In this document: positions 22,006 to 64,000 of the stretch, one piece after another
How positions within the stretch are numbered: position 1 is the first letter of the stretch
Layout of the letters: each line of letters opens with the position of its first letter
Source of the DNA: Candidatus Enterousia sp.
GTDB taxonomy: Bacteria; Pseudomonadota; Alphaproteobacteria; Rs-D84
NCBI GenBank assembly: GCA_045648925.1
Contig: JAZROY010000001.1
Coordinates: 8,841-72,840, forward strand
Reading direction: 5' to 3'
Length of the DNA stretch: 64,000 nt
The notes under the pieces: generated by a model
Told to the model about the DNA's origin: nothing
What the model saw: only the letters and a program-made list of their open reading frames with translations
Database searches by the model: none
Position numbers and translations under genes: made by a program

Positions 22006-22021
22006 TCCTTCGTTAAAGCTA

Positions 22022-22061
22022 CGGGTGGCAAGCCACCTGGGGCCGCAGGGCAAAGACGGAC
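22022..22061 (+). repeat. GC-rich 40-nt hairpin-containing spacer element, copy 2
   Basis: The sequence cgggtggcaagccacctggggccgcagggcaaagacggac lies between tRNA-Leu(TAA) and tRNA-Val. Confidence 0.6.
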
Positions 22062-22107
22062 GAGAAGGAGTGTTTTTCCGCAAATGCGGATTTTTTGTTA
22101 AAGTTTT

Positions 22108-22184
22108 GGATGTGTGGCTCAGTTGGTTAGAGCACTACGTTCACATCGTAGGGGTCGGCGGTTCGAGTCCGCCCACATCCACCA
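22108..22184 (+). tRNA. tRNA-Val (anticodon CAC)
   Basis: The acceptor stem is ggatgtg/cacatcc, followed by A and CCA. The anticodon stem ctacg/cgtag carries loop ttCACat, and the T-loop is ggttcgagtcc. Confidence 0.85.
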
Positions 22185-26636: not shown

Positions 26637-26654
26637 CCTTTCCTTATTCCATTA

Positions 26655-27116: not shown

Positions 27117-27189
27117 GTTTTCTCTCTTGCCTTTCGATTCGTTTTTATGATACAATTATATCAGATATAAAAACAAGGGATTTTTTATT

Positions 27190-48473: not shown

Positions 48474-48826
48474 TAAGTAGGTGATCAATAAGCCGGATTC
48501 TGTTCAACCTTTTATGTACACACACTACATAAAATGGTTGCAAGCATAATTAATCTGCAAATTGCGTTACCGCAAAATGTCAAGCCCCCTACCCGATTCT
48601 TTAAAGCGGCTGGAACGTGCCATAGAATCCTGTTTGAGGTTGCTGCACATAGAGATTGCCCGTTTCACCGTAACTTAATACGCTCGTCTCTGCTGCTCTA
48701 ATCGTCGGGTCTCCCCGCGTGGTCATTAGCCACTATGTTGTTCCAAGCAGTCCGGACTTTCCTCTGAATTGTGTTCATACAGGAAAACCTGCGTCCAATT
48801 CAGCTATGCTTTTTCACACCCTTGAC
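48474..48826 (-). ncRNA. rnpB: RNase P RNA (bacterial type A)
   Basis: The minus strand contains GAGGAAAGTCCGGAC (P4 5' strand, complement of 48750-48766) and ACAGAATCCGGCTTA (P4 3' strand, complement of 48489-48503). Both are universally conserved RNase P RNA blocks. The region is GC-rich relative to its surroundings, and a TATAAT box lies upstream at about 48832-48837. The ends are approximate to within about 10 nt. Confidence 0.75.
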
Positions 48827-48831
48827 GAACC

Positions 48832-48862
48832 GTATTATAACAAGTTAAAAAATTTTTTCAAT
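48832..48862 (-). promoter_or_regulatory. putative sigma70-type promoter of rnpB (TTGAAA, 16 nt, TATAAT)
   Basis: On the minus strand the sequence reads ttgaaaaaattttttaacttgttataat, which sits immediately upstream of the inferred rnpB 5' end. Confidence 0.45.
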
Positions 48863-49082
48863 ATTTTTTATTGCTTTCGCCCATCTTTTTTGCATCTTGC
48901 AAAGTTTGTACAAGTATTTCGTGAGCAATTTGACGAATTTTGTTTGCAAGCGGTCGCACATTCATTGCCTCGGCAACTGCATTTCCAAATTGTTTAGATA
49001 TAGCATCGATTTGACTGGGGGCGATAACAAAGACATCGCTGGAAATATTCTGTGTATCAAGTGTCGTAATATTGTTTTTCAT
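48858..49082 (-). CDS. small hypothetical protein (74 aa)
   Basis: The ORF has protein-like composition (MKNNITTLDTQNISSDVFVIAPSQIDAISKQFGNAVAEAM...). It is divergent from the giant-repeat-protein operon. A weak RBS (GAGAG) lies upstream. Confidence 0.3.
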   Translation of the reverse strand: MKNNITTLDTQNISSDVFVIAPSQIDAISKQFGNAVAEAMNVRPLANKIRQIAHEILVQTLQDAKKMGESNKKY

Positions 49083-49228
49083 CTTGTGTTCTCTCGTTAT
49101 TTTTCATGTCAGTTGTATCATATCACAAAAAACATTCAAAAAAAATAAAAAACAACATTTTTTCATTTGACACAATTGCGACAATTTTTCTATAGTTTAA
49201 AAAGATAGGAGAAAAAGGATCGGTCTTA

Positions 49229-52200
49229 ATGGCTGTTTTTCGGGCTTTTTATCGTGGTTTTGGACGCATGTTATTTGTGTCGGTTTTGTGCTTTGCGTGT
49301 GGTTTTCTATCTGCTCGGGCGGAAGAATATACAATTGTATACCTTAATCAACACGGTGATGAGATTAGTGATTTAACACCGGATAGATATACAGAAGAAG
49401 AATTGCCGTTGGCAAAAGAAAACTTGCCGAATAGCGAAGCGGTAAGCATAGCAACAGGTTGCGAATTGGCAGACGAACTATGGTATTGGGATGATAAGAT
49501 GTCAGAACCTGTGGACCAAATAGAATCTGTCTCAGACGAAGGGACAACTTTGTACGGGAATTTGGATTGTGGTGAAAACCGAATCGTGGCTTTGAATTCA
49601 GCAGGTAAAGAAGGAATTGGTTCTGGTGGAACGAGGATACTCTATTATTATCGTAATTTGGGTGAATCTGGTGAATTCTTTTATAATGAGTATAACGGTA
49701 GTAAATCTGCGTCTGGTGTGGCGTCATCCATAGTGTTGCCGACATATGATGATGAAAGTTATACTTTCTTAGGGTATTATGCAGACCCAGACGATATGGA
49801 AACACAATGTATTAATGAACGGGGATACATAACAGAATACGGTATCCAGCAAATGGCAGAAGGTGGCGAAGGTGAAACATCATGGGATGCAGTGTATGAT
49901 CCCAAAATAATCCCTAAGAACATTATACAGTTACTACCAAATTATGGTTCTTCTTTTACTAGTCCAGGGACAGGTTATATATATGGAGTCCCGTCGACGT
50001 ATGGTGGCGGGATATACGATGCATATTCTGGGGGTAACCAAATATCGTCAATAACTATTCCAACATGGGGTGGACATAGTTTCTTAGGGTATTATTCTTC
50101 TAGTAGTGCGAATTCGACTCAATATATAGATTCCGTTGGTAATATTACGGCCGCAGGTATAGCAAAAGCGCAAGAAAATCCTGGGGGCTCGAATCAAACT
50201 TGGTATGGTCACTGGTCAGGAACATATAGTTTGCACTATGACTGTTCGACTAATTATAATGTTGTAGGTCAACAAGGGAACGGTACCGCACCGGCGGACG
50301 AACCTCATTCTGCTGGGCAACCTGTCACATTGCAACAAAATCAAGGGTGTTATCCTACGGATTCATATTATTCTTTTGGTGGTTGGAATTGTTTTAATCG
50401 GGTAGAAGTGATTCAAGCTGGTGGTTATTCTATAACGACTGATTACAGCAATGGCCCAATAAATAACGGATATAATTTGACAATGCCTTATAATGATGTG
50501 TGGTGTGAACCAATTTGGATACCTTCTAATGTGACGTTATCATATAATTGCGGATGGTTGCCAAATACTAACACGCCCGTTTCTGGACCTGCGCCGTCAT
50601 TGGTTTATGGTTCGGCGCCGTTGGGAGGAAATTTGGCATCAGCCGCCGCGGCACAGAATACTTGTATAATAGATACCAATACTTACAGTTTTGTTGGGTG
50701 GTATTGTCCGGGGGGGGCTTGGATATCGGAACCAGGCGGTGTATTCAGCATTACGGAAGATGCAACTTGTTATGCCGTGTGGGCAGAAAACAATCCGTGT
50801 GCCCCTGGGAGCGAGGCCAGCAACAGTCCAGAAATTTTGGGTGGCACAATTAGTGATTGGAATCAGATACAACAACTTTTTGTTTCATTAAATGATTTGT
50901 CTGGAATGTGTAGTGAAACTGTTGGTAGTTATCCCGGACAGATTGGAACACCTTCTTCCACATCTGGCGATTATTGTTGGTGTCAAGCAACTTCTTATAA
51001 TTCAACACCATTAAATAATTATCCATGGGTGTTTGTTCAGTATTACAATGGTTGTAACGTAGCAAATTGTCAATCTTGGTGTTTGTCCTCGATTAACCAA
51101 AAAGATCCTGATTATTTCTTTAATGTTTCTTTGTTAAGTAATCCGATATGTGAATATACATTGGATTATGATTGTGGAACTGTCGGTGGTACTGCTCCGT
51201 CATCTGTTTCAGGAATAATTCCAACAAATATCACACAAAACAGTCCGATGTCATTGGCGTCTACTGCGCCAAGTTGTAACAACGGCAACAACACTTTATC
51301 TGGTTGGACATGTTATGCTAGTTCAGATACAGGGCAAACAACACCTTTGACAAGTGCATCATATTCCTTAGATACCATGCCTTATGATAATGTAACTTGT
51401 TATGCGAATTGGGTTCCGCCCCAGGGATATACTGTGACGTATAATTGTGATAATGGTAATGCACAACAGAGTAGCATGCTTGGTGGAACTTATAACTATG
51501 GGGCTACTGTGACATTGTGGACACAAAATGGTAATTCTGTTGGTTCGTGTGATGTTCCGAGTAATAGAGTGTTTGTTGGCTGGAACTGCTATTTTGATAA
51601 TCCTGATGCTTATTCTCCACAAGCTACATATGATACTACTGGTTATTATCAGACGGTTCTTTATTTATCTGATTATACAGAATCTGGCACGAGCATATCT
51701 GTAGATAATGTGATTTGTACGGCGCAATGGGCTTGTGATACAACGAATGGTTATACGTGGGATAATCTAACGCAAAGTTGTGTTAATGAGTACAAAATTT
51801 ATTATAATCCTGGTCAACATGGAAATTATGGAACTGGCAGTTGGGGTTCCAATGGTTTTGGACCAGGGGCAAGCAATGGTGGTGGAACATTTGGTCAGTA
51901 TTGGTCAACGCAACTTTTGTCGGCAACGACCATAGTGCCGGATGATTCTTGTTATGAATTTTGTGGTTGGAGCACGGTATGGAATGACACTTGTGGTAGT
52001 GCGAATATTTTGACTGCTGGGGCACAACAACCAAACGTATGGGATCTTACAACTTATTTGAATCTGTATGCGGTTTGGCAATGTGCGAGCGGTTGTGTAG
52101 CAAGTGGTGATGCTTGTGTTTCTGCGCCGGCAACCTATATTGTCACCTATCATGGTGGAACTTGTTTGCCAAGTGCCTCAGATTATCAAAGTGATCCGAT

Positions 52201-52960
52201 AAATGCAGGCGACAGTTATATCGTGGAAAATCCGAATTGTACATATGCGAATTCACATTATTTTATACCAACCGATAACTGTTATGAATTTGTTGGGTGG
52301 AGCGAAGATAACCCTGCCACGCAAAATCCAACGATAGATTATAACAATTGTGATAATTGTACCACCCAAACGGGCAGTTGTGGAACAATCTTCAACGTAT
52401 CGTCTAACATAGACCTTTATGCGATATGTGATGTTATGGCGCACAATGTGATATATCATGATTGCGATAATACATATACTTATACTGATTCAAATGCTGT
52501 TTGGATTGGGCAAAGTTCGGATTATACACCGTTATCGCCATCTGTGGCGCCGTTAAGTTCGTCAGATTTGAAAATAGACCCATTATCCAGTTTCCAGGGC
52601 TGGGCAACATCAGAAACTGCTGGTGATGGTAAATCGTGGTGTGGATTAGAGTCGGGTGATTTATACCCGGAATTGTATGGTGGAAACGGTAAAGAAACTA
52701 AGTACAATTATTCTGTGAGCGCCGATAAATTGTGTCATGATATCGATTTGTATGCGGTGTGTTGTCCGTTGAATTTAAGTTGGATTTTAAACGGTGGACA
52801 ATGGCCAACAGACCCAAATAATCAAACAACTTTGCAAAACCAGACATCGTGTGAATATGGGGCGACTGCAGGACAATCTGGTTCGATTACACCATTGCAG
52901 ACCCCATTAAAGCCAGGATACACATTTAATGGATGGCTGGTAACAGGTTATACACCTTAA
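49229..52960 (+). CDS. giant secreted cysteine-containing repeat protein (1243 aa), Listeria-Bacteroides (Flg_new/InlB B-repeat-like) repeat family
   Basis: An N-terminal signal region is present. There are about 12 modules of 75-95 aa with the pattern Y-x-[VL]-x-Y-[DN]-C..G.....C....[FY].GW.C......(M/T)P...V.C[YT]A.W or LYAV(W/C). A C-terminal GYTFNGW motif is present. The protein is very rich in G, S, T, N and Y. Confidence 0.75.
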   Translation: MAVFRAFYRGFGRMLFVSVLCFACGFLSARAEEYTIVYLNQHGDEISDLTPDRYTEEELPLAKENLPNSEAVSIATGCELADELWYWDDKMSEPVDQIESVSDEGTTLYGNLDCGENRIVALNSAGKEGIGSGGTRILYYYRNLGESGEFFYNEYNGSKSASGVASSIVLPTYDDESYTFLGYYADPDDMETQCINERGYITEYGIQQMAEGGEGETSWDAVYDPKIIPKNIIQLLPNYGSSFTSPGTGYIYGVPSTYGGGIYDAYSGGNQISSITIPTWGGHSFLGYYSSSSANSTQYIDSVGNITAAGIAKAQENPGGSNQTWYGHWSGTYSLHYDCSTNYNVVGQQGNGTAPADEPHSAGQPVTLQQNQGCYPTDSYYSFGGWNCFNRVEVIQAGGYSITTDYSNGPINNGYNLTMPYNDVWCEPIWIPSNVTLSYNCGWLPNTNTPVSGPAPSLVYGSAPLGGNLASAAAAQNTCIIDTNTYSFVGWYCPGGAWISEPGGVFSITEDATCYAVWAENNPCAPGSEASNSPEILGGTISDWNQIQQLFVSLNDLSGMCSETVGSYPGQIGTPSSTSGDYCWCQATSYNSTPLNNYPWVFVQYYNGCNVANCQSWCLSSINQKDPDYFFNVSLLSNPICEYTLDYDCGTVGGTAPSSVSGIIPTNITQNSPMSLASTAPSCNNGNNTLSGWTCYASSDTGQTTPLTSASYSLDTMPYDNVTCYANWVPPQGYTVTYNCDNGNAQQSSMLGGTYNYGATVTLWTQNGNSVGSCDVPSNRVFVGWNCYFDNPDAYSPQATYDTTGYYQTVLYLSDYTESGTSISVDNVICTAQWACDTTNGYTWDNLTQSCVNEYKIYYNPGQHGNYGTGSWGSNGFGPGASNGGGTFGQYWSTQLLSATTIVPDDSCYEFCGWSTVWNDTCGSANILTAGAQQPNVWDLTTYLNLYAVWQCASGCVASGDACVSAPATYIVTYHGGTCLPSASDYQSDPINAGDSYIVENPNCTYANSHYFIPTDNCYEFVGWSEDNPATQNPTIDYNNCDNCTTQTGSCGTIFNVSSNIDLYAICDVMAHNVIYHDCDNTYTYTDSNAVWIGQSSDYTPLSPSVAPLSSSDLKIDPLSSFQGWATSETAGDGKSWCGLESGDLYPELYGGNGKETKYNYSVSADKLCHDIDLYAVCCPLNLSWILNGGQWPTDPNNQTTLQNQTSCEYGATAGQSGSITPLQTPLKPGYTFNGWLVTGYTP

Positions 52961-53007
52961 AACAGGTCGAAAACGAGATTAAAAAATAATAAAAAAGGAC
53001 GGGAAAG

Positions 53008-53985
53008 ATGAAAAACAAAATATTTTTAACCAGCATGTTCGCAGTGATGCTCGCCTTCCCTGCGTATGCAAGTTATTTTGCAGATCCGACAGGTCAATCC
53101 ACTAATTATTCTGGACAAATTGCTGCGGGCAGCACACAAGAAGATTGTGATTCTGACCCTTTGCAGTATCAGGTCCCACAAGGGCAAGGTGAAAGTTACG
53201 GAACATATACCCTTACCGCACAATGGACACCAAATCAATATACTGTAACTTATGATTGTAATGGTGGGACAGTTAATTCGTCTTTGGTTGATAGTGTTGA
53301 TTCCAATGGATACGGTATCGATAATGTCATCTATAATACAACGTCATATACGTTTCAACATCAATTGGATTTGTGTACCTATGCCAACCAAACACCTAGT
53401 GAGTTTACGTGTACTCACAATGCGGATGGTACACCTTGGTTTGTTGCGCAAACATGGGATATTCCTGATGATGTAACTTGTACAGCGCATTGGAGTGAGA
53501 CACCATATACGATAACTTATGATTGCGGTTCGTTGCCAAATAATGGTGGGGTTGTAAATGGCGGAACATTTGAAAATAGTACCAATAATGTTGATACAGT
53601 TTATAATGGACAGAATTATTCAGTAAAATCTGATGCTTCAGGTTGTGGAACAGGTAATCAATTGGCAGGATATCATTTTGCTGGGTGGTCTTGTACACCA
53701 AATCTTGCAACAGGTTCTGGGTCACAAATATATTCTGTTGATTGGCCAACATCAACTGTTGTTTCTCAGACAATAGCATCTCTTGGAATTTCTGCCGACG
53801 CTACCTGTGATGCTTTGTGGCAAGAAAACGGTGTGAATTTAAGATATTTGGAAAATGCTGGTGATGTCACACCATATCATACTGATTCTTGCCAATATGG
53901 TAATGATACATTCACTTTACCAGCAGAACCATCCAAAACAGGTTATACATTTACTGGTTGGAAGGTGACAGATTGGGACGAATAA
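53008..53985 (+). CDS. secreted repeat protein (325 aa) of the same Cys-containing Listeria-Bacteroides-like repeat family
   Basis: It has a signal peptide (MKNKIFLTSMFAVMLAFPAYA) and the repeats YTVTYDCNGG ... CTAHW and YTITYDCGSLPNNGG ... CDALW. It ends GYTFTGWKVTDWDE. Confidence 0.75.
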   Translation: MKNKIFLTSMFAVMLAFPAYASYFADPTGQSTNYSGQIAAGSTQEDCDSDPLQYQVPQGQGESYGTYTLTAQWTPNQYTVTYDCNGGTVNSSLVDSVDSNGYGIDNVIYNTTSYTFQHQLDLCTYANQTPSEFTCTHNADGTPWFVAQTWDIPDDVTCTAHWSETPYTITYDCGSLPNNGGVVNGGTFENSTNNVDTVYNGQNYSVKSDASGCGTGNQLAGYHFAGWSCTPNLATGSGSQIYSVDWPTSTVVSQTIASLGISADATCDALWQENGVNLRYLENAGDVTPYHTDSCQYGNDTFTLPAEPSKTGYTFTGWKVTDWDE

Positions 53986-54060
53986 TAATGAAGCAATTAA
54001 GTTAAAAAAAGGACTTGTGTTAAAAAAATAAAAAGTGCTAAGGTAATATAGGAAAGGGAA

Positions 54061-57000
54061 ATGTTTAGATTTTTACTGAGATTTTTTGCAGTATTTATCA
54101 CCTGCTCTGCTTTTGTGGGGCTGGCTTCCCGTCCTGTGTTGGCAGATATCGGGACTACTACATGTGATGATAATAATGGTACATGCGGAACTATCGGACT
54201 CGATTCGTCTGCTTCGTGTAATAATCCACCTTTGCTTTGGCATAGTAGTTCAAACAATTATGGAACATATACCCTTACCGCCCAGTATGAAAGAACACCT
54301 TTCCATGCTTATTATAAAAACGGTTCCTGTTATGCCGGGTCTGATTTCACTTATTATCAAGATCCAACTGTCGCGTATTACCAAGATTCTTATACTATTT
54401 TAGGTTTAGATGATATCTCGACTATTTCTTTACCTTCTGGTGGTAATTACGCGTTTGACGGATGGACAACCTGTTGGGCGCCTTGTGATGATCTCAGTAA
54501 TCTCAGCGATTGTTCGCAAACCCCTGTTTTGCCTGGCTCTTTTAATTGGTCAAAAGATAAATGTTTGGTTTTGACTGGTAATTGTACGATTCGTCAATGT
54601 GAAAACGGACAATGGTTTGATAGTGCTACTGGTGAATGCAAATCTTGTCCTGATGGATATAATTATTCTGACAGTGGTGCAACCAGCATGGCGCAGTGTT
54701 ATAAGATTAAAGAGGTTCCTTGTCAACCACAAGAACAAGCATTGTCAGAATATTGTACAGAACCTGCATCTTGGGAAGAATCTTGTACTTGCGACGACAG
54801 TGTAAGTTATCGTATATATTCTAATGCAGAAGGTACCGGCGAAGGGCAATACACAGATGCGAACGGGGATGCCTTACCGTCAAATACCCCGCCAGCTGCA
54901 CCAATATGCACATTAGGTGTAACATTTGCAACTGGTGTATCAGGGTATGTTTTCAATCAACAAACTGGCGAATGTGATCCGATTGGATACAAATTAGAAT
55001 ATAATTGCGGTAAAAAACCCGATTCGAACGATGATGTTGGCGGAAATCCACCGGCAGCAACAACTGGTATTCAAATTGGCGGCAGTGCTACTGTAAAGGA
55101 TTATACCGATGGACAATGTCAATCGACCGGGCTTACGTTCCAACGTTGGAGTTGCGTATGGAAAGAACACGAATCGCCATATTCGGTGGTTGGTAATCCT
55201 GAAAATCATACTGCAGGTGATACGATAACACCTTGGTCAGCTTATGATATGGAATGCACTGCTGTGTGGGAGAATAGCATACTTGATTGTCCAGATGCGT
55301 ATCCAGAGCACGATGAAGAAGTAACAAGTTATACCCAGTGTTACAGAATTACCACTACAAGCAGTTGTGATAAACAAGGTAATACAACTGCGATACAGAA
55401 TCATTGTATTTATAATATGGATTGTTCATGTGATCCTGTGACGTATCGTGTTTATTCTAATGAAAGTGGTAATGCAGACGGTTTAATTAAGAACGAGGAT
55501 GGTTCTCAGGTTCTTTCGAATATACCTGCCCCATCTTGTCAAAGACAGATTGTTGGAAATCCGACAGGTGCTGAAGACGGATATGCATATAATCAACAGA
55601 CAAACACATGTGAGGCATTGCCGACATATCCAGTTGTTTATGATTGTAATAATAATGGATTGGGAATAGATGGTAATGGAACGAATCCATCTGATTCGAA
55701 CAGTCCTTATGCTGCGGGTAATGCTGTGAATGTGTTGGCGTACCCTGCTGGGTGTCAGGCACCAACAGAACGTGTCGCGGATGCTACACTTGGCTGGGAA
55801 TGTGTTGCCCAAGATGGAACCCTGGTGTATTCTGGTTCGGGCAACGCTGACTTTAATATGCCTTCTCAACCTGTGACTTGTACTGCCCAATGGAAAAGCA
55901 CCGCATGGTCAATAACATATATGGGATGTAATTGTGATACATCTAGTTATAGCGATTTATTTTACAATAAATGTACGCAAGATTTAACCAGCAGAGTTAG
56001 AAGTGGTGAATATGAGACAAATGATTCTAGTACATATTATAGAACGTTTACTGCTACCAGACCTGTTACATTCCCTACTGTTGCAGGCAATACAAATTAC
56101 GGAGAAATTAATGTCGCAAGTACTGCTTTTTCAGGTAGATGGTTCTATTTTAATTTTAGAAACGGTGTCCCTGTTGGTACAACAACCTCTGCTGGGACAA
56201 ATTCATCAGGGGAAGATAAAGATTTAATAATATACACATGTCTTGGGGATTCTTATCAGGTGACATATAATTGTATAAAAGGAAATGGTGGAACACAGGT
56301 AAAAGGTCCTTATCAGAAACAATCTGTGTCGACACTGGGCCGTGCTGCCTGTCCATATGAACCTGGTTGGACATTCACATGGAATTGTGGTGGTTCGTAT
56401 ACTAGTGTTACCCCAGGTGGTTCGATTTATGTGGACAGTGATAAAGTATGTAATGCCGAATGGACTTGTGATACTGCAAACGGTTATGTGTTGGAAAATG
56501 GGCAATGTGTGAAGAAATACAATTTGAAATTTAATTGTAATAACAGTAAAGATTCTGTAAGAACGGAACGGTTATTAAGTGGTGCAACTTTTGATACTAG
56601 TTCGGTTCAATGTCAAACGAAAAATTGTTCTGAAACTGGTTATACTTGGAGTTGTAACCCATCAAGTGCGCTTAGTGGTAATACCGTGACAATGCCTGTG
56701 GCTGATGTGACATGTACCGCGCAATGGACACCGATAAAATATACCGTCACTTATAACAGTGGTTCTTGCGGTAGTGCGGGTCATACCAATGAAACCCTTT
56801 ATACTCACAGTGATGGTGCAACATGTGGTGTGGGGTATTCTGTACCATCGAATGCCACCAGTGCAATGAATAATGTGCTTCAATCTGGTTATACCTTTGT
56901 TGGGTGGAATACAAATTCTGGTCAAACAACATCAAATTGGTCTGGTGGAAACATTACTGGGGATATTACTGTTTATGCGGCATGTAAATCGATAGAATAC

Positions 57001-60000
57001 AACCTAACCTTGCGGTGTAATGATAATGCGACAGACGAGAGAACTGCTTCATATAATGCAGGTGAATCTGTAGGGTTAGTATCAACCGCAAGAAATGGTT
57101 GTGCTAATGATACTGATGGTATGATATTCAGTCATTGGACTTGTAACCCAAGCAGTTTGTATGATAATTCAAATGTTACAATGAACAATAATGTTGTTTG
57201 TGATGCACACTGGGATACAAAATATCATTTGACATATGATTGCGCCAACGACAGAGCGAATGAAAACCCAACAGGTGGCTGGTATGACAGTGGAGAGGCG
57301 GTGACAACATTGACTGATAATGATCAGGGGACTTGTAGCACATTGCCGTATGAAGGTGCAGAATTCAAAGGATGGAGTTGTTCACCAAACAATAACAGAA
57401 ACGGTTCAACTGGTGCTATGACCATGCCGCCATCAAATGTGGAATGTACCGCACAGTGGGACGGTGCAGAGTTCACAGTCACCTATGATTGTAGCGGGAC
57501 AACTGTGACAGGCGGGCATGTTAAGAATAGTGAAAATACACAACGCAGACACGAAAATATTAAATATGGCAGCAGTTCATTTACTTTTGACCAAGCGAAC
57601 AATGTTTGTGAATATGCACATTATACACCTGCTAACTGGACTTGCGTAAGAGAAGATACAGAACAAGATATAACCAGCACAATCAGTTTTGGTGTTTCGG
57701 AAAAATGGAAACGTCCTTATAATGTAAAATGTACAACAGATTGGATGCCAGAACCTGTTACATTGACATATAATTGTAATAATAATGGTTTGGGAACCAG
57801 CAGTAATCCTGGTCAGAATCCACAAGGTGGCACGTATGATTATAACACAAGGGTTGCCATGGTAGAAGGTGATGGCGGATGTAAAGTTCCAGCAACAGGT
57901 AAAACCTTTAAGGGGTGGAATTGTAGCCCAGATAGTCCAGATGATGATGGTTATATAACATTAACCACCGATACGACATGTACGGCAGATTGGGGTGATG
58001 CAGAATATTACCTGACATACGATTGCAATGGTGGAACAGGCAACCCGCCACGTGATGAAGATGAAAACGGGAATCCAATTCCACGTAGGTGGACTGAAAG
58101 CGTGCAGATAAAAAGTAACACTTGTGAGAAAGAAAACTCGTCTTTTCAATATTGGGACTGCGATGGAACACCTGTCAGCGCTGGACGTAATTTTTATATG
58201 CCTGCGCACAATGTGACTTGTTATGCACAGTGGAAAACCCAAGATTTTCAGTTAAAGTATAATTGTAATAATGGCGGGTTGGGAACGAATCCAGCTTCAC
58301 AAACTTATGCCGCTGGGACACCGAATATACAGGTATTGTCAAACACTAATTATAGTACCTGTCGGAAACCAACATCAGACAAAAACTTCCAAGGTTGGAA
58401 TTGTCACAAGGAAGGCGACACCGGGACACCTTTTGTTAGTGGTAGCGCGATGCCGGCATATAATGTGGTTTGTGATGGACAATGGGATGGTGCTGTATGG
58501 AATATTACATATATAGGATGCAGAAGTGGAGATTGTGTCGCGTGTACTGATCCGTGGGTTTTGAATGAATATATTGATCAATCTAAACAAATTTATAGTT
58601 CAGAAACGAATCCTGCTATCGTCTTCCCTGTTCCAGGTAGAACGGATGATTATGAATTGTTCAACACAATAGAAGAGGAGGAATTTAGCTTTGTCGGTGC
58701 TTGGGTCGATCAATACGGGGCTCGTAGGACTAGTACGTATTCCTTGCTTGGAGATTTAACTCTTTGTACCAATCTTAAACCATACTATGAGGTCACATAT
58801 GATTGTGGGTGGGAGCATCAGGCGCCAATTGATGAAAACAATCCATATGTTTCTGATTCAAAGGTGTCGGTTAAAAACAGTTCTACATGTGGTGATGGCG
58901 CAAGAGATGGTTATACATTTATAAACTGGAGTTGTAAGCCAGATGGTCAAAGTGCCTTTGATGTCGCGGGTTCTGGTGGTGAATTCAATATAACTGCTGA
59001 TACGACATGTACTGCTGTTTGGGATACAAAAGGTTATGTAATAAGATATCATGGTGGTACAGCTGGTGGCAGAAATGTTACACAAGTTGCAATGTCAAAT
59101 CAGGCAGTGTCTTATAGACAAGAAAATGTTGTGTTAAAGAAAAATACTTTCGCGATTGCTGGGTATGAATTTAATGGTTGGGATTGCAAGGTTAATGGCA
59201 CGTCAATATCTGGTGCTTATTTGTCTGATCAAGCCAATATTGGTACGTATTCTTATACTGATAATATGGATTGCACTGCACAATGGTCTCCGCTGCAATA
59301 TAATATTATTTATAACAAGGGATCATGCGATGGAACATCTTATACCAGTTATGATGCTTTGACTTATGATGATACTTATACTGTACTTGGGTTGTATGAT
59401 TCAAATAATATGACTGTTTTTGCGCCAGTGGGATATGTGTTTACAGGGTGGCGGACTGTGGATACAGTGATACAAAATCCAGATAGAATACCTGGACAGA
59501 CATATGGGCCGTGGACAACAGCTGGCGATTTGAATCTTTATGCTACTTGTGAACGCGAACCATATTATGTGACTTATGATTGTGATACTTATGATGAAGA
59601 TAGTGTCACCCCAGTAGATGAAAAAGCATATTATGTTGATAATACTGTGTCGTTAAAACAAAACACATGTAAGAAAACTGGTTGGTCACCAGTTGGGTGG
59701 GAATGTTATCCTTTGACAACTGAAAACTCCGCTAGAGGTATGTCAAATGCTTTGGTTATATATGATGACAATACTTTCAGTATGCCTGCTGATAATGTTA
59801 AATGTGATATGAGATGGGAACAAGATGTTTATCATGTGACATATGAATGTAGAGGGGATGCTGATTGTGATACCACCGGTTCAAATTGTCAGACACCACA
59901 AGATAATCAAGAATATGAGTATGGTGATTCTGTGTTAACAGCAACCAATACTTGTAAAAAATCTGGGCATGATTTTGTTAAGTGGAATTGTGCTGGTCAA

Positions 60001-61542
60001 GATGTGGGCGCTGGAAGAACTTTTGGTATCTATGATGATACACTGTGTTATGCTGTGTGGAATCCAAAACAGTATAATGTCGTGTATCAAAGCGGAAATT
60101 GTGAATCAAGAGGAACTCATGTGACACAGACAGATTATAATGTGTTGACATATGGGCAAAACTTTACGGTTGATGATATATCAGATTCTGGTGTAAATGT
60201 ACGCAATGGTTATGAATTTTTGGGCTGGAGTACTTCTTTGGTGACTAATGAAGATTTGGAAACAAATAGTTTTGAACCAGAATATGTTTCTGGACAAACA
60301 TATGGACCGTGGAATACGGATGATGATTTGATACTGCATGCTGTGTGCAAGAAAAAAGTATATAATATTTGCTATAATTTCCAAGTCCAAGGTGCAAAAT
60401 GGAAAGATAGTAATGCGAATCCTTTGTATTCTTATGATGTTGATGTTGAAAGTACGCCTGTTCATTTAGCCGTTCACGAAGATAATGGTGTGGGGAATTT
60501 CTATGTGTTTGACGCTTGGTATAACACACCAGGAATGTATCATGATCAAAATGATACAGGAACAAAGATAACAGAAGTTCCTAGTGCAGCAATAACTCCG
60601 TTAGATACCCCAATGTCTGTGCGGTGCAATGGAACGATATCTTCTCCGCAGTGCGAAAATTCAGCTTATGCGAGCTGTGATGTGGTGCTGTATGCAAAAT
60701 GGCGTGAAGCTGGTAAGATAAGGTTTGCTTGTAGCGCAGATGATTATGTTGAAGAAAAGGATGCGGTGAACAGCTTTATCGAAGCAGCAAACCCTGAATA
60801 TGTTGGTTGTGATCTTGAAGGCTGTGATTTTGATGCGTGGCATTGTGAAAATTACACTGGTTCGCCAAAAGATTATGTGCCAGAGGAAGATTCTATACAA
60901 GTTTTGGTGGCGAATACTACTGTGATATGTACGCCAATCAAAGATTGTTCGAATCTTGAGTACGATATAGAATATCATGTGTATAAAAATGGTGAGGAAG
61001 CATCAGAAGTTTATACGAATGATGGTCAATACAGGGTTAATGTCAGCAACCTTAAACCAGATACATATAGCCCTGGGGATGAACCAGTTGCCTATCCTGT
61101 TGTGTCGTGGCCAGACTGCAGATTTACAGGATGGTATGAAAATCCACAGTTTACGGGTAGAACAGTGACACAAACCCCTGCTCTGGCGATTGACGAAGAA
61201 GGACATGATATAGTTTTATATGGACAAATGATTTGTGAAACGACATGTAATGAACCAGGACATGAACATTGGTTCCATATTGGCAACAATCCAAACGACA
61301 AGGTGTGCTTGTACGAAAAACGTCCAACAGATTTGACACCTGCTGTCAGGGTTAAAGGCGCAAACAGAGAGCCGTATTACATGATGTTGTCTACTGATCC
61401 GGATATGATTATACACGAAGGTTCTGCTAAGCGGATGCGTATCCAACACTCAGACGGTAATATCTATAATGTGTGTGATAAGACCAGTTGTGGTGATTTA
61501 GTTCCCATATATCAGGGTGGATGGAACGGAGATACAATGTAA
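54061..61542 (+). CDS. giant secreted repeat protein (2493 aa) with about 25 Cys-containing Listeria-Bacteroides-like repeats
   Basis: It has a signal peptide (MFRFLLRFFAVFITCSAFVGLASRPVLA). Recurrent blocks include Y.LTYDCNGG, GW[NS]C, MP...V.CTAQW, GYTFVGW and LYA.C. A single ORF is uninterrupted for 7.5 kb, and a terminator follows. Confidence 0.8.
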   Translation: MFRFLLRFFAVFITCSAFVGLASRPVLADIGTTTCDDNNGTCGTIGLDSSASCNNPPLLWHSSSNNYGTYTLTAQYERTPFHAYYKNGSCYAGSDFTYYQDPTVAYYQDSYTILGLDDISTISLPSGGNYAFDGWTTCWAPCDDLSNLSDCSQTPVLPGSFNWSKDKCLVLTGNCTIRQCENGQWFDSATGECKSCPDGYNYSDSGATSMAQCYKIKEVPCQPQEQALSEYCTEPASWEESCTCDDSVSYRIYSNAEGTGEGQYTDANGDALPSNTPPAAPICTLGVTFATGVSGYVFNQQTGECDPIGYKLEYNCGKKPDSNDDVGGNPPAATTGIQIGGSATVKDYTDGQCQSTGLTFQRWSCVWKEHESPYSVVGNPENHTAGDTITPWSAYDMECTAVWENSILDCPDAYPEHDEEVTSYTQCYRITTTSSCDKQGNTTAIQNHCIYNMDCSCDPVTYRVYSNESGNADGLIKNEDGSQVLSNIPAPSCQRQIVGNPTGAEDGYAYNQQTNTCEALPTYPVVYDCNNNGLGIDGNGTNPSDSNSPYAAGNAVNVLAYPAGCQAPTERVADATLGWECVAQDGTLVYSGSGNADFNMPSQPVTCTAQWKSTAWSITYMGCNCDTSSYSDLFYNKCTQDLTSRVRSGEYETNDSSTYYRTFTATRPVTFPTVAGNTNYGEINVASTAFSGRWFYFNFRNGVPVGTTTSAGTNSSGEDKDLIIYTCLGDSYQVTYNCIKGNGGTQVKGPYQKQSVSTLGRAACPYEPGWTFTWNCGGSYTSVTPGGSIYVDSDKVCNAEWTCDTANGYVLENGQCVKKYNLKFNCNNSKDSVRTERLLSGATFDTSSVQCQTKNCSETGYTWSCNPSSALSGNTVTMPVADVTCTAQWTPIKYTVTYNSGSCGSAGHTNETLYTHSDGATCGVGYSVPSNATSAMNNVLQSGYTFVGWNTNSGQTTSNWSGGNITGDITVYAACKSIEYNLTLRCNDNATDERTASYNAGESVGLVSTARNGCANDTDGMIFSHWTCNPSSLYDNSNVTMNNNVVCDAHWDTKYHLTYDCANDRANENPTGGWYDSGEAVTTLTDNDQGTCSTLPYEGAEFKGWSCSPNNNRNGSTGAMTMPPSNVECTAQWDGAEFTVTYDCSGTTVTGGHVKNSENTQRRHENIKYGSSSFTFDQANNVCEYAHYTPANWTCVREDTEQDITSTISFGVSEKWKRPYNVKCTTDWMPEPVTLTYNCNNNGLGTSSNPGQNPQGGTYDYNTRVAMVEGDGGCKVPATGKTFKGWNCSPDSPDDDGYITLTTDTTCTADWGDAEYYLTYDCNGGTGNPPRDEDENGNPIPRRWTESVQIKSNTCEKENSSFQYWDCDGTPVSAGRNFYMPAHNVTCYAQWKTQDFQLKYNCNNGGLGTNPASQTYAAGTPNIQVLSNTNYSTCRKPTSDKNFQGWNCHKEGDTGTPFVSGSAMPAYNVVCDGQWDGAVWNITYIGCRSGDCVACTDPWVLNEYIDQSKQIYSSETNPAIVFPVPGRTDDYELFNTIEEEEFSFVGAWVDQYGARRTSTYSLLGDLTLCTNLKPYYEVTYDCGWEHQAPIDENNPYVSDSKVSVKNSSTCGDGARDGYTFINWSCKPDGQSAFDVAGSGGEFNITADTTCTAVWDTKGYVIRYHGGTAGGRNVTQVAMSNQAVSYRQENVVLKKNTFAIAGYEFNGWDCKVNGTSISGAYLSDQANIGTYSYTDNMDCTAQWSPLQYNIIYNKGSCDGTSYTSYDALTYDDTYTVLGLYDSNNMTVFAPVGYVFTGWRTVDTVIQNPDRIPGQTYGPWTTAGDLNLYATCEREPYYVTYDCDTYDEDSVTPVDEKAYYVDNTVSLKQNTCKKTGWSPVGWECYPLTTENSARGMSNALVIYDDNTFSMPADNVKCDMRWEQDVYHVTYECRGDADCDTTGSNCQTPQDNQEYEYGDSVLTATNTCKKSGHDFVKWNCAGQDVGAGRTFGIYDDTLCYAVWNPKQYNVVYQSGNCESRGTHVTQTDYNVLTYGQNFTVDDISDSGVNVRNGYEFLGWSTSLVTNEDLETNSFEPEYVSGQTYGPWNTDDDLILHAVCKKKVYNICYNFQVQGAKWKDSNANPLYSYDVDVESTPVHLAVHEDNGVGNFYVFDAWYNTPGMYHDQNDTGTKITEVPSAAITPLDTPMSVRCNGTISSPQCENSAYASCDVVLYAKWREAGKIRFACSADDYVEEKDAVNSFIEAANPEYVGCDLEGCDFDAWHCENYTGSPKDYVPEEDSIQVLVANTTVICTPIKDCSNLEYDIEYHVYKNGEEASEVYTNDGQYRVNVSNLKPDTYSPGDEPVAYPVVSWPDCRFTGWYENPQFTGRTVTQTPALAIDEEGHDIVLYGQMICETTCNEPGHEHWFHIGNNPNDKVCLYEKRPTDLTPAVRVKGANREPYYMMLSTDPDMIIHEGSAKRMRIQHSDGNIYNVCDKTSCGDLVPIYQGGWNGDTM

Positions 61543-61574
61543 ACAACCCGTAAAAAAACGGGTTGTTTTTTTTG
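61543..61574 (+). terminator. rho-independent terminator after the giant-protein operon (aacaacccg-taaaaaaa-cgggttgtt followed by T8)
   Basis: The hairpin is followed by a T-run. Confidence 0.75.
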
Positions 61575-61700
61575 TTCTATCTTGTTTTTCAAAAATATTT
61601 CATTATATAGGATAAAGTGGCTTGACCCTGGGGATAAAAATTGCTATAAAATATAGGATTTAGGGCGGTGGGTCTGGAAAGAACGGTAAGGAAATGTAAA

Positions 61701-64000
61701 ATGAAAAATGTATTAAAGTTAATATTGGGTTCTGCAAACGATAGAATTGTAAAATCATACGAAAAAATAGTTTCAACGATAAATAAATTAGAACCTAAGT
61801 ATGCGGCTATGTCGGATGATGAAATTCATGGTTTGACCGCTGTGTTTCGTGAACAATTAAAAAATGGTGCAAAGGAAAAAGATATTTTACCAGATGTATT
61901 TGCGGCTGTGCGCGAAGCTGCTAAACGTTCTATTGGTTTGCGACATTTTGATGTGCAATTGATTGGTGGTATGGTTTTGAATAATGGTCAAATTTCCGAA
62001 ATGAAAACTGGTGAAGGAAAAACACTGGTCGCAACATTGGCTTTGTATTTAAAAGCATTACATGGCAAAGGGGCGCATTTAATTACTGTTAATGATTATT
62101 TGGCATCGCGTGATGCTGGATGGATGGGGCAAGTTTACAGATTTTTGGGTATGACCATCGGTGTCATTCAACATGATATGTCTGACGAAGATAGACGCGC
62201 GGCTTATAATTGTGATATTACATATGTTACTAATTCCGAATTGGGATTTGATTATTTGCGTGATAATATGAAATTTACCAAAGAACAACAGGTTTTGCGC
62301 CCGTTCTTTTTTGCTATTGTTGACGAAGTGGATAGTATTTTGATTGATGAGGCGCGTACCCCACTTATTATTTCTGGTCCATCAGAAGACACAAGTGATT
62401 TATATAACAAGGTTGATTCTGTGGTGGCACAACTGGTCGCTGATGATTACAAGATTGATGAAAAAGATAGACATGTGACATTGACAGAAAATGGCGTTGA
62501 TCATGCGACAGAATTATTAAAACAATCTGGCGTTTTGATGGGCGATAATTTATATGCCGCAGAAAATGCAGTTATAGTTATGCATTTACAGCAATCTTTG
62601 TTGGCGCATCATTTATATGAAAAAAATGTTAATTATGTTGTTAGAAATGGCGAAGTTTTAATTGTTGATGAATTTACTGGTCGTGTTATGACAGGTCGCC
62701 GTTTTGGCAAAGGATTACATCAAGCAATTGAAGCCAAAGAACATGTGACTGTTCAACCAGAAAATCAAACTGTGTCCAGTATTTCATATCAGAATTTATT
62801 CAGAATGTACCCTACTTTGGCTGGTATGACCGGAACGGCAATGACCGAGGCAGCAGAATTTGAAGAAATCTATAAATTGCGTGTTGTGTCAATCCCGACT
62901 AATAAACCTGTGGCGCGTGTTGACCATCATGATGAAATATATCGCAACAAACAAGAAAAATATGATGCGATTATAAAACAAATTTCTGAATGTATGGAAC
63001 GCAAACAACCTGTGTTGGTTGGAACAGTATCTATTGAAAAATCAGAAGAGTTGGCAAAAATTGTTCAAGAAAAATTGGGTATCAAACCGGCTGTATTAAA
63101 TGCAAAACATCATGAATCAGAAGCAAAAATTGTATCCCAAGCAGGCGCACCCGGGGCGGTCACAATTGCAACAAATATGGCTGGTCGTGGAACTGATATT
63201 AAATTGGGTGGAAATGCGGATGATTTAATCGCAGAGTTGGATGAAACTGCTCCTGAATTTGAGAAAAAGAAAAAAGAAATCATCAAAAAAATTGAAGAAA
63301 ATAAAAAAATAGTTTTAGAATCCGGCGGGCTTTATGTGATTGGTACAGAAAGACACGAATCTCGCCGTATTGATAATCAGTTGCGTGGTCGTTCTGGTCG
63401 TCAAGGTGATCCGGGTGATTCTAAATTCTTTTTGGCATTGGATGATGATTTGATGCGTATATTTGGTGCGGCAAGATTACAAAATATGCTGACAACTTTG
63501 GGACTAAAACCTGGTGAAGCAATTACTCATCCTTGGATAACAAAGGCCTTAGAAAAAGCGCAAAAACGTGTCGAAGCCAGATATTTCGAAGCGCGTAAAG
63601 AATTGTTAAAATATGATAATGTTATGAACGATCAAAGAACTGTTGTTTACAAGCAACGCGATGAATTGATGACTTCGGAAAATCTGGAACCGTTGATAAC
63701 AGAATTTATTGGTGATGTTGTTGAGTTGATTTGTGAAAGAAACATTCCAGAAAAAGCACATCCGTCCACGTGGAATACAGAAGGTATCCATGATAATATG
63801 ATGCGTATATTTGCATTGGATATTACAGATATAAATAATTGGAAGACAGATGAAACAATATCTGAACGTGCCGCGTATAATACTTTGTTTAATTTAGCGA
63901 TGCGCCGTTATCATCAACAAAAAGAAAAATATGGTGTTGAATTGATGCAGATGGCACAAAAACAAATGATGTTGGGTGCATTAGATTCTGTGTGGAAACG
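61701..64000 (+). CDS. secA: preprotein translocase ATPase SecA (3'-truncated at window end)
   Basis: It starts MKNVLKLILGSANDRIVKSYEKI... It has the DEAD-like motor with Walker A (MKTGEGKTLVATLA), Walker B (DEVDSILIDEARTPLIISG), and the motif TNMAGRGTDIKLGGN. The ORF runs off the window end. Confidence 0.9.
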   Translation, partial: MKNVLKLILGSANDRIVKSYEKIVSTINKLEPKYAAMSDDEIHGLTAVFREQLKNGAKEKDILPDVFAAVREAAKRSIGLRHFDVQLIGGMVLNNGQISEMKTGEGKTLVATLALYLKALHGKGAHLITVNDYLASRDAGWMGQVYRFLGMTIGVIQHDMSDEDRRAAYNCDITYVTNSELGFDYLRDNMKFTKEQQVLRPFFFAIVDEVDSILIDEARTPLIISGPSEDTSDLYNKVDSVVAQLVADDYKIDEKDRHVTLTENGVDHATELLKQSGVLMGDNLYAAENAVIVMHLQQSLLAHHLYEKNVNYVVRNGEVLIVDEFTGRVMTGRRFGKGLHQAIEAKEHVTVQPENQTVSSISYQNLFRMYPTLAGMTGTAMTEAAEFEEIYKLRVVSIPTNKPVARVDHHDEIYRNKQEKYDAIIKQISECMERKQPVLVGTVSIEKSEELAKIVQEKLGIKPAVLNAKHHESEAKIVSQAGAPGAVTIATNMAGRGTDIKLGGNADDLIAELDETAPEFEKKKKEIIKKIEENKKIVLESGGLYVIGTERHESRRIDNQLRGRSGRQGDPGDSKFFLALDDDLMRIFGAARLQNMLTTLGLKPGEAITHPWITKALEKAQKRVEARYFEARKELLKYDNVMNDQRTVVYKQRDELMTSENLEPLITEFIGDVVELICERNIPEKAHPSTWNTEGIHDNMMRIFALDITDINNWKTDETISERAAYNTLFNLAMRRYHQQKEKYGVELMQMAQKQMMLGALDSVWK

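Follow-up and report, generated by a model that had tools for sequence, protein, structure and literature searches.

Three exported repeat proteins encoded between rnpB and secA in a Candidatus Enterousia-like genome: candidate subunits of a split-domain surface fibre

A window of 64,000 nucleotides, i.e., the whole stretch of DNA that was analyzed, contains between rnpB and secA three genes for exported repeat proteins, here called A, B and C. The question that this locus raises is whether the three products act independently or are parts of one surface structure. The host, a gut alphaproteobacterium, is represented by a Candidatus Enterousia-like MAG of about 0.9 Mb from the order Rs-D84, the genomes of which have about 0.75-1.0 Mb, and the operon of 12.3 kb makes up about 1.3% of such a genome. 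The first-pass annotation had assigned the DNA to an AT-rich alphaproteobacterium, and the GcrA encoded in the window agrees with this.

The operon and its repeat modules

The features of the locus are summarized in Table 1. The three co-directional ORFs were reproduced on the + strand with the lengths given before, and the gaps, described as shorter than 80 bp, measured 47 bp (A-B) and 75 bp (B-C). Each gap contains a Shine-Dalgarno-like site. The promoter-like sequence upstream of A had 11 of 12 consensus matches and was the top-scoring one on the + strand in the region. A scan of the same strand found the sole strong terminator-like site, a strong hairpin with a T-tract at 61541-61568, directly after the C stop codon, and none in either intergenic gap. 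Both flanks and the terminator were located, and thus the earlier placement of the operon between rnpB and secA, with its own terminator, was verified. Inspection by eye also revealed the predicted signal peptides of A, B and C, with n-region, hydrophobic core and AxA-type site. On balance, we favor an operon with its own promoter and terminator that encodes Sec-exported fibrillar surface proteins, as part of the best explanation of the locus. Read-through of the B stop codon into C was considered and rejected: the two genes share a frame, yet several stop codons follow 3' of B.

Table 1. Features of the locus (positions in the window; aa, residues of the protein)
Feature	Position	Strand	Details	Basis
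rnpB, left landmark of the variable site	48483..48813	-		RF00010, 154.9 bits
Promoter-like TTGACA-18-TATAGT	49167..49196	+	33 bp upstream of gene A start	consensus match only
Gene A	49229..52960	+	1243 aa	ORF listing
Signal peptide of A	49229..49321	+	aa 1-31, ...FLSARA/EEY (cut after ARA)	inspection
Four four-Cys modules of A	50225..51730	+	aa 333-430, 436-518, 643-728, 734-834	
C-half of A, proposed acceptor	52778..52957	+	aa 1184-1243, truncated Flg_new repeat	profile match
Gene B	53008..53985	+	325 aa	ORF listing
N-piece of B, proposed donor	53071..53232	+	aa 22-75, ...EDC47DSDPLQYQVPQGQGESYGTYTLTAQW	module HMM match
Two four-Cys modules of B	53239..53820	+	aa 78-162 and 167-271	
C-half of B	53830..53982	+	aa 275-325, VNLRYLENAG...SC295QYG...GYTFTGWKVTDWDE*	profile matches
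Gene C	54061..61542	+	2493 aa	ORF listing
N-piece of C	54145..54288	+	aa 29-76, ...SC53NNPPLLWHSSSNNYGTYTLTAQY	
Cys-rich unit of C (~115-155 aa), copy 1	54520..54987	+	aa 154-309, without family match	
Main module array of C	54988..60345	+	aa 310-2095	module HMM, Pfam
Cys-rich unit of C (~115-155 aa), copy 2	55270..55626	+	aa 404-522	
CTD of C, proposed anchor or sorting domain	61240..61539	+	aa 2394-2493	
Intrinsic terminator	61541..61578	+	11-bp stem, 5 G-C pairs, then T-tract	
secA 5' part, right landmark of the variable site	61701..64000	+		

The module pattern Y-x-V-T-Y-x-C ... C ... F-x-G-W-x-C ... V-x-C-x-A-x-W was confirmed in the proteins. Their number had been given as about 40, which was an overestimate: an iterated HMM yielded 33 matches (9 in A, 4 in B, 20 in C), including weak and partial ones. 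According to the same HMM, about one third of the total protein lies outside of the module repeat. The non-module stretches are aa 1-138, 221-332 and 519-642 in A and aa 1-80, 178-309, 404-522, 612-731, 1476-1575, 2096-2218 and 2390-2493 in C; Pfam searches with nine non-module regions of A and C gave no significant match. In A, the stretch of aa 519-642 is a Cys-rich insert without a known family that interrupts the four-Cys modules. The main array of C comprises 13 four-Cys modules, four canonical or two-Cys Flg_new repeats, the second Cys-rich unit and a pair of variant units, aa 612-731 and 1476-1575, each of about 100-120 aa.

The assignment to the Listeria-Bacteroides repeat (Flg_new) was borne out for B and C, which reached 33.9 and 53.4 bits with PF09479 (cut-off 27), whereas A alone stayed below it with 19.4 bits. 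TIGR02543 (cut-off 20.95) matched B with 31.9 and C with 25.3 bits, C also matched PF18998 with 29.1 bits (cut-off 23.6), and relatives carry the NCBI name 'InlB B-repeat-containing protein'. The repeats of the operon belong to the beta-grasp fold of the InlB B-repeat, and they form tandem series of about 65-90 aa with GY.F.GW and (L/C)xAxW in exported proteins, the signal peptides being recognized by inspection. Flg_new repeats are stalk domains of fibrillar adhesins and are enriched in gut archaea too. Known Flg_new proteins (PDB 2Y5P) share with the operon proteins the profile family, the fold, the tandem arrays, the signal peptides, and the hallmarks GY.F.GW and L/C-x-A-x-W. In contrast to them, the operon modules mostly have four conserved cysteines, their host is an alphaproteobacterium with a diderm envelope and a reduced genome, domains are divided between neighbouring genes, and a new C-terminal domain (CTD) is present in place of LPXTG, GW, T9SS or S-layer anchors. 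In the literature, Flg_new arrays of gut microbes are regarded as adhesin-like stalks (e.g., PMC9723798, PMC7883539, bioRxiv 10.1101/2021.12.07.471604).

Three to four cysteines per repeat had been described. The four-Cys pattern indeed fits 19-20 of the 33 matches (at least four Cys), but the others are Cys-free or two-Cys canonical repeats. The four cysteines co-occur strictly, in accordance with the proposed stapling: among 214 unique modules the patterns were CCCC (155), none (45), --CC (9) and C-CC (3). This co-occurrence points to two disulfides in most modules, with the predicted pairing C1-C2 and C3-C4. At the DNA level the module copies were at most 78% identical over 45 nt. The modules are thus old and diverged, which excludes recent repeat amplification as well as an assembly collapse or other assembly artefact.

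The repeat domain at the gene boundaries

A feature overlooked by the first-pass annotation is that, according to profile matches, a repeat domain is interrupted by the A-B and B-C gene boundaries. The last repeat of A and of B is a truncated two-Cys repeat (C-half) that stops just after GYTFxGW, and B and C start, once the signal peptide and a brief leader are passed, with the absent last third, C-x4-[LI]...G-T-x-T-x-T-A-x-W (N-piece). One invariant cysteine is present on each half. Protein A has a repeat directly after the signal peptide, without an N-piece, and its C-half ends seven residues past GYTFNGW, has C1208 as single cysteine, and covers only positions 12-38 of the 65 positions of the Flg_new profile. 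Protein B has the order signal peptide, N-piece, two four-Cys modules and C-half, the latter matching Flg_new positions 5-39 of 65 and columns 10-42 of the 73 columns of an intact-repeat HMM. Protein C likewise opens with signal peptide and N-piece, continues with about 20 modules and further Cys-rich units, and closes with the CTD.

The two-Cys repeat is contiguous inside giant proteins of other species (L008, residues ~1634-1710; L012, ~1708-1784; L022, 128-200; L042, 207-282), and each of these unsplit repeats has exactly two cysteines. On an HMM of the unsplit repeat the C-halves span columns 1-42/46 and stop at the protein end, while the N-pieces map to about columns 43-73. With this HMM 27 of 62 N-pieces scored above the 95th percentile of shuffles; the window's own N-pieces scored poorly against the intact-repeat HMM, which was built from four sequences. 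In an independently built module HMM of 78 columns, residues 25-73 of B aligned to columns 58-78 and residues 277-325 to columns 2-51.

The order of the genes was also conserved. After 10 of 11 ORFs ending in a C-half, an ORF with signal peptide and N-piece follows within the next 400 bp; in L042, the ORF behind a C-half has no detectable N-piece. At L009 an N-piece is present in the second ORF, though the first one lacks a terminal C-half. An A-B-C or B-C layout recurs at the loci L001, L004, L007, L009, L010, L018, L019, L024 and L064.

That B is a member of a short 'connector' protein family had likewise escaped notice. About 48 of 65 B homologues have a signal peptide, an N-piece and a C-half that ends 3-17 aa past GY.F.GW. 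In an alignment of 45 proteins C47, C295, G312, F315, G317 and W318 were invariant, and the split point, both half-domains and one cysteine per side are kept across about 48 protein clusters that share 25-40% identity. The number of cysteines in the mature protein was even in 48 of 48 B-like proteins. In C-like proteins, which have only the donor, it was odd in 8 of 11 cases, or in 9 after the signal-peptide cut of one protein had been corrected by eye; two C-like proteins were even despite their donor-only makeup. C of the window has 117 cysteines. Mature A has 48, and this even count is not what a lone acceptor cysteine predicts.

In an AlphaFold model of the whole B protein the termini were the confident parts, with pLDDT values of about 70-84 for the N-piece and 87-93 for the C-half; the first internal module (aa 79-128) was below 50 and the second averaged about 45-78. 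A single-sequence model of a B-C junction chimera had a pLDDT of 41, which is too low to be informative. Lipoprotein anchoring of B-like proteins was rejected, because the signal-peptide cysteine is not conserved, and B of the window has Phe at that position.

The C-terminal domain and the variability of the locus

The CTD of C, also missed before, has a length of about 75 aa and the core C-x-x-x-G-x-x-W-[LF]-H-[IV]-G...[IV]-C-L-Y...Y-Y-x-x-L...K-K-[ML]-[HR]-[IV]...Y-N-[VA]-x-D. A search of 1.84 billion representative proteins, one per 50%-identity cluster, gave 333 matches. Among the 150 of these 333 matches that were listed, the CTD was C-terminal in most, and the proteins were up to 5654 aa long; in about 19-26 related loci it forms the very C-terminal end of the last giant protein. 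Word-index searches retrieved only 3 and 7 short proteins. Comparison of the CTD profile with PDB sequences gave no significant hit (best E 0.32, bulb-type lectins), and Pfam searches with 22 members found nothing consistent. By its sequence matches the CTD is a conserved, previously undescribed small family bound to this lineage, and its probable role is that of an anchor or sorting signal.

The CTDs of the Bacteroidota T9SS are similar in that they are conserved, beta-rich C-terminal domains of about 75-100 aa on unrelated, often giant proteins of one lineage. They are found in another phylum, however, and the CTD of C has no sequence relationship to them; Pfam and NCBIfam revealed no Por_Secre_tail/TIGR04183-type match in A, B and C, and the window showed no T9SS genes. 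The C-terminal beta-barrel translocator of type V secretion has no counterpart either: A, B and C matched neither autotransporter and TPS families nor any other barrel family, and the CTD has only about 75 aa. RTX and BIg matches, typical for type I RTX/BAP proteins, were also absent from A, B and C, which instead have Sec-type signal peptides.

The first-pass annotation had raised the possibilities that the operon is an insertion at the rnpB-secA site and was acquired horizontally. In related species, a protein with the CTD of C adjoins secA in 26 of 47 species loci, and in 13 of 47 rnpB adjoins secA with nothing in between. The rnpB-secA locus is ancestral to the order Rs-D84 but hypervariable. 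Horizontal acquisition was not upheld. The GC3 of 0.29 equals that of the core genes (0.31), so that a recent transfer is not supported, and the excess GC sits in GC2, i.e., in the amino-acid composition. Recent acquisition of the operon as an island from Firmicutes or Bacteroidota, in which Flg_new proteins are commonest, would fit with the empty site in 13 species and with an RSCU correlation with core genes of 0.77, compared to 0.96 among core genes. Nevertheless, such an acquisition is very improbable, because, in addition to the GC3 value, CTD proteins occupy the site also in distant species (SecA about 78-80% identical), those close homologues that carry a source name, a minority of the matches, are labelled Alphaproteobacteria, and the CTD family is tiny and lineage-bound.

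Proposed assembly and alternative explanations

The location of the gene boundaries inside a repeat domain suggests that the three pieces join into one fibre. We lean towards the view that the three products would be non-independent subunits of one surface fibre with a stalk of InlB B-repeats (Flg_new, beta-grasp), joined head to tail by complementation of the split repeat. Once the subunits are exported, the truncated repeat at the end of the upstream one would be completed by the N-piece of its downstream neighbour, and the junctions would be locked covalently by the intermolecular disulfides A C1208-B C47 and B C295-C C53. The product would be an A-B-C fibre with A as the proposed distal subunit, B as the proposed connector and C as the proposed basal, proximal subunit, the CTD of which would either hold the fibre at the cell envelope or guide its passage through it. 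Because B has both ends, A-Bn-C is also conceivable. More tentatively, and with slightly less than even confidence, we propose that Rs-D84 bacteria build such head-to-tail split-domain fibres several thousand residues long, which would be disulfide-locked, free of chaperone and usher, and equipped with the CTD as envelope anchor or outer-membrane sorting signal, and in which the 'connector' family could be a polymerizable shaft unit.

A similar logic is known from chaperone-usher pili, in which the fold of a subunit lacks its last strand and receives it from an extension at the N-terminus of the neighbour that follows; the tip is acceptor only, the middle subunits are both, and the terminator or base differs (PMC12122975, PMC6048123). 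The complementary sequences, the unsplit homologues, the gene order and the cysteine parity support a putative analogous arrangement here, in which A would have only an acceptor, B an acceptor and a donor, and C a donor together with the CTD. The operon proteins differ in that they have a beta-grasp instead of an Ig-like fold and are giant, multi-domain subunits, and their proposed junction is a covalent disulfide. The operon consists of the three repeat proteins only, and no PapD or usher Pfam match was found in A, B, C or the flanking genes. In sortase-assembled Gram-positive pili, separately exported tip, shaft and base subunits also become one covalent fibre, as proposed for A-B-C, but via isopeptide bonds instead of a disulfide in a reconstituted domain; the operon lacks sortase and LPXTG, and its host is a diderm.

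Alternatively, the three proteins could be independent secreted or surface adhesins, and the half repeats and N-pieces inert scars, left when one giant gene split long ago and tolerated at chain ends. Fission did occur, as the unsplit versions in other species show, and the even cysteine count of A and the solitary B-like genes (e.g., L066) are also compatible with inert scars; in addition, the docking of N-piece and C-half is a prediction from sequence. We nevertheless regard this explanation as unlikely, although it carries some weight. Scars would not be expected to place the split point, the half-domains and one cysteine per side among the few invariant positions in about 48 clusters, to keep the parity of B-like proteins even without exception, or to obey the gene-order rule in 10 of 11 cases. 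A beta-grasp left incomplete and exposed, with an unpaired cysteine, should have been lost or capped, yet these are among the best-modelled parts of B. The parity of the B-like proteins would fit equally well if their own N-piece and C-half closed in cis by an intramolecular disulfide to a compact stand-alone protein, with A and C pairing directly or staying incomplete. The solitary genes and the confident termini of the B monomer model are in line with such a closure, and for stand-alone B-like proteins like that of L066 cis closure and homopolymerization are equally possible. For the operon, however, closure in cis is decidedly unlikely: A is acceptor only and C is donor only, and therefore a trans partner is needed, C-like proteins have mostly odd cysteine counts, and B-like genes usually lie between or before acceptor or donor partners.

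The notion of a broken pseudogene, or of one misassembled giant gene, takes into account that repeat-rich genes are prone to misassembly and that L001 and L034 have likely frameshifts or premature stops. It is scarcely credible for this operon, because every downstream ORF comes with a Shine-Dalgarno-like site, an ATG and a signal peptide of its own, independent MAGs show the same architecture, and the repeats are too diverged in DNA for a collapse. Furthermore, the clusters of A and C hold near-full-length, near-identical proteins from other assemblies (1247 aa and 2499-2505 aa, respectively), while that of B has a single member, which comes from the 153-kb NCBI contig that also carries A and C.

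In Candidatus Enterousia and its order the genomes are smaller than 1 Mb, and the TCA cycle and respiration are absent, as are standard sugar, amino-acid and peptide transporters (PMC12306168). Due to this missing metabolism and transport the order probably depends on a partner, and a costly operon at a species-variable site is a leading candidate for the attachment machinery that sets which host or partner cell is bound. If the split junctions work as proposed, they would represent a new covalent fibre assembly in a diderm without pilus machinery, i.e., a covalent analogue of donor-strand complementation without chaperone or usher in Rs-D84 bacteria. They would also provide a split-protein pair of natural origin that brings its own disulfide lock, and thus a possible protein-ligation tag, and the CTD may mark a new surface-sorting route.

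Operon layout and repeat modules

The three ORFs for the giant secreted repeat proteins A, B and C were found at exactly the positions given by the first-pass annotation, and its landmarks, i.e., rnpB, secA and a terminator of the operon's own, were also borne out (see the table). The ORFs are co-directional, and the gaps, which had been described as shorter than 80 bp, are 47 bp (A-B) and 75 bp (B-C). Both contain a Shine-Dalgarno-like sequence, several stop codons follow B, and neither gap has a strong terminator-like site on the plus strand. As had been claimed, all three N-termini resemble Sec signal peptides, as judged by eye only. The small ORF next to rnpB may encode a conserved small protein, because two related loci (L064, L065) have a predicted minus-strand gene of 70 aa in the corresponding place.

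Features of the window and their coordinates
Feature	Position	Strand	Remark
Cys-rich protein	3524-4948	+	474 aa, signal peptide, 6.8% Cys
Cys-rich protein	19050-21665	-	871 aa, signal peptide, 4.4% Cys
Four tRNA genes	21660-22184	+	Leu-CAG, Ala-CGC, Leu-TAA, Val-CAC
PF01478 gene and two adjoining unannotatable ORFs	23480-27155	-	ORFs of 414 and 639 aa, signal-peptide-like N-termini
Type IV prepilin peptidase family gene (PF01478)	26655-27155	-	
rnpB	48483-48813	-	
Small ORF	48858-49082	-	74 aa, between rnpB and operon promoter, no Pfam match
Promoter-like site	49167-49196		near-consensus
Gene A	49229-52960	+	1243-aa ORF
Gene B	53008-53985	+	325-aa ORF
Signal peptide of B	53008-53070		
Gene C	54061-61542	+	2493-aa ORF
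Terminator-like site	61541-61568	+	after C, sole strong one on plus strand
secA	from 61701		

The module pattern Y-x-V-T-Y-x-C1 ... C2 ... F-x-G-W-x-C3 ... V-x-C4-x-A-x-W with its conserved Cys is real, as noted before. With an iterated HMM, 33 modules were matched, 9 in A, 4 in B and 20 in C. Of these, 19-20 have at least four Cys and fit the four-Cys pattern, and the remainder comprises partial, two-Cys and canonical repeats. Regions outside the modules, mostly Cys-rich and without a family match, make up about a third of the residues. Therefore, the earlier figure of about 40 cysteine-stapled repeats was an overestimate. The modules are old and diverged at the DNA level, and the Cys contents of A, B and C are 4.0%, 3.1% and 4.7%. 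The assignment to the Listeria-Bacteroides (Flg_new) repeats stands: Pfam PF09479 scored above its gathering score with B (33.9 bits) and C (53.4 bits), but below it with A (19.4 bits), TIGR02543 and PF18998 are consistent, and relatives are named 'InlB B-repeat-containing protein' by NCBI. The AlphaFold model of B, based on a 45-sequence alignment, had a mean pLDDT of 63.7, and Foldseek alone yielded no significant match.

The four Cys columns were compared in 214 unique modules from the window and related loci. All four were occupied in 155 modules and none in 45, the patterns --CC and C-CC were seen in 9 and 3, and C--C and -CC- never occurred. This co-occurrence argues for two disulfides per module, with the likely pairing C1-C2 and C3-C4.

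The C-terminal domain of C and the rnpB-secA site

A new C-terminal domain (CTD) was found in the last about 100 residues of C. Its core spans about 75 aa, includes two invariant Cys and finishes with the motif Y-N-[VA]-x-D; neither Pfam nor the PDB sequences gave a match. In related loci, the secA-proximal proteins have this core as their very last part, and this holds even for passengers built from another kind of Cys-rich repeat. When 1.84 billion representative proteins (one per 50%-identity cluster) were searched with a profile, 333 matched, 147 with E <= 1e-10. For most of the 150 matches listed, the CTD forms the C-terminal end of the protein, which can be as long as 5654 aa. Across Rs-D84 species the CTD is the constant and the passenger the interchangeable element, and the position and distribution of the domain are like those of a lineage-specific anchor or sorting signal. 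A role comparable to that of the T9SS CTD is proposed, although the two are not homologous. Of the secretion signals suggested for a check by the first-pass annotation, a T5SS barrel, a T1SS signal and a T9SS tail were all absent from A, B and C. The CTD was also seen on passengers with few or no Flg_new modules (L015, 4722-9833; L021, 6990-9833; L018, L019, L035, L044), which are very Cys-rich (4-7%) and have CPxGxYC-type motifs at least in L018 and L019.

The window encodes GcrA, LpxA, LpxB and TolQ/TolR, and the host is therefore an LPS-bearing diderm alphaproteobacterium. According to published work (PMC12306168), Enterousia and the order Rs-D84 have genomes of 0.75-1.0 Mb, without a TCA cycle, respiration or the standard transporters for sugars, amino acids and peptides. 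When species-representative genomes were scanned with the SecA fragment, 47 loci were recovered whose SecA identity is about 78% or higher; all belong to uncultured gut, rumen or termite-gut Alphaproteobacteria, several of them named Candidatus Enterousia. A protein with a C-like CTD is encoded directly upstream of secA in 26 loci, rnpB directly precedes secA in 13, and 8 are cut by a contig end or arranged differently. Gene number and passenger type vary widely, as does length, from about 350 aa up to more than 3280 aa. The GC3 of the operon matches that of the core genes (0.29 versus 0.31), and its higher total GC stems from GC2 (0.48 versus 0.36), i.e., from amino-acid composition. Therefore, the site is an ancestral, hypervariable surface-protein site of the order, here in a genome-reduced symbiont lineage, and not a recent import; the horizontal acquisition considered earlier was not supported.

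Further features were seen outside the operon. The two Cys-rich proteins of 474 and 871 aa, which lack a Pfam match, a Flg_new module and the CTD, may be additional surface proteins, and the prepilin peptidase gene with its two neighbours may represent a pilus or secretion cluster that is divergent or has been reduced to a remnant. In many of the loci L002-L042, a gene about 6-8 kb past the secA start, outside the window, encodes a conserved protein that is about 800-1000 aa long and contains a motif with Cys (MDQFCANANDTYRRCFCSDRF...).

Repeat domains split at gene boundaries

The gene boundaries cut a repeat domain, and each half has one conserved Cys. A ends with ...LNLSWILNGG...SC(1208)EYG...PLKPGYTFNGWLVTGYTP and B with ...VNLRYLENAG...SC(295)QYG...PSKTGYTFTGWKVTDWDE, each directly before the stop, and of the 65 positions in the Flg_new profile these pieces cover just 5-39. 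After the signal peptide B continues with ...EDC(47)DSDPLQYQVPQGQGESYGTYTLTAQW, and the start of C reads ...SC(53)NNPPLLWHSSSNNYGTYTLTAQY. In a module HMM whose construction took no account of the split, residues 25-73 of B aligned to columns 58-78 and residues 277-325 to columns 2-51. An unsplit, contiguous copy of the same repeat subtype is present inside a giant ORF of L008 (ITLDWNENGGSQIDNGVCEYGTDLILPDAPVRDGYVFAGWKLADGTIKNATETVAAGCVENYIGVTSGDSNVIAAQW), similar copies exist in L012, L022 and L042, and each has exactly two Cys. With an HMM of these four repeats, the truncated C-terminal repeats (C-halves) of dozens of proteins mapped to columns 1-42/46, ending at the last residues, and the segments after the signal peptide (N-pieces) to columns of about 43-73, 27 of 62 N-pieces beating the 95th percentile of shuffles. 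The AlphaFold model of B was confident at its two ends, in the N-piece, with pLDDT block means of about 70-84, and in the C-half, at 87-93. The first internal module (residues 79-128) stayed below 50, and the second averaged about 45-78.

B was found to be a member of a family of short connectors. About 48 of its 65 homologues share the signal peptide MKNK[IL]FLTSM..., the N-piece and a C-half that stops 3-17 residues past GY.F.GW. Invariant in an alignment of 45 proteins were L7, T8, S9 and P18 of the signal peptide, C47 of the N-piece, Y171, W227, C229 and C267 of the last module (C173 and C213 nearly so), and C295, G312, F315, G317 and W318 of the C-half. The signal peptide of B-like proteins (P0002-P0065) is unusually conserved for proteins only 25-40% identical overall, which hints at gene conversion or a dedicated recognition step.

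Gene order and Cys parity were also analyzed. Of 11 ORFs with a C-half at their end, 10 are followed by an ORF with signal peptide and N-piece no more than 400 bp away. First genes start directly with a full repeat (A; a 1331-aa ORF in L004), and last genes have an N-piece and the CTD. The Cys number is even in all 48 B-like mature proteins (1+4+4+1 in B) and odd in 8 of 11 C-like, donor-only proteins, or 9 after by-eye correction of one signal-peptide cut misplaced by a crude rule; C has 117 Cys. Two related MAGs have what look like frameshifts or premature stops: in L001 (1610-9460) the CTD is on a separate 236-aa ORF just past a 2380-aa ORF, and in L034 (1183-6126) an ORF stops inside an otherwise intact two-Cys repeat. 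Either sequencing errors or real decay may explain these breaks.

Proposed assembly of the subunits

A plausible assembly mechanism is subunit completion with a disulfide lock. Once two successive subunits have been exported by Sec, the truncated beta-grasp domain of the upstream one would be completed by the N-piece of the downstream one, and an intermolecular disulfide would form between the two lone Cys, one per half. The product would be an A-B-C fibre or, because B has both ends, A-Bn-C. Several observations fit poorly, namely the even number of 48 Cys in mature A, the first ORF of L009, which has no C-half, the L042 ORF that follows a C-half, in which no N-piece was detected, and solitary B-like genes. 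The latter make it possible that a B-like protein closes in cis or homopolymerises. In L066 (9950-11422, 20687-21424) a lone connector (P0061) has another neighbourhood (PPDK, NrdD), and a 1262-aa Flg_new giant that begins directly with a repeat is located 9 kb away; thus, connectors do not always adjoin their presumed partners.

The proposed completion of one subunit by the next resembles donor-strand complementation in chaperone-usher pili, with a tip that is only an acceptor, middle subunits that have both ends and a base of a different kind. In contrast to these pili, the fold is another one, chaperone and usher genes are absent, and a covalent lock is proposed. If confirmed, this assembly mechanism would be of real interest.
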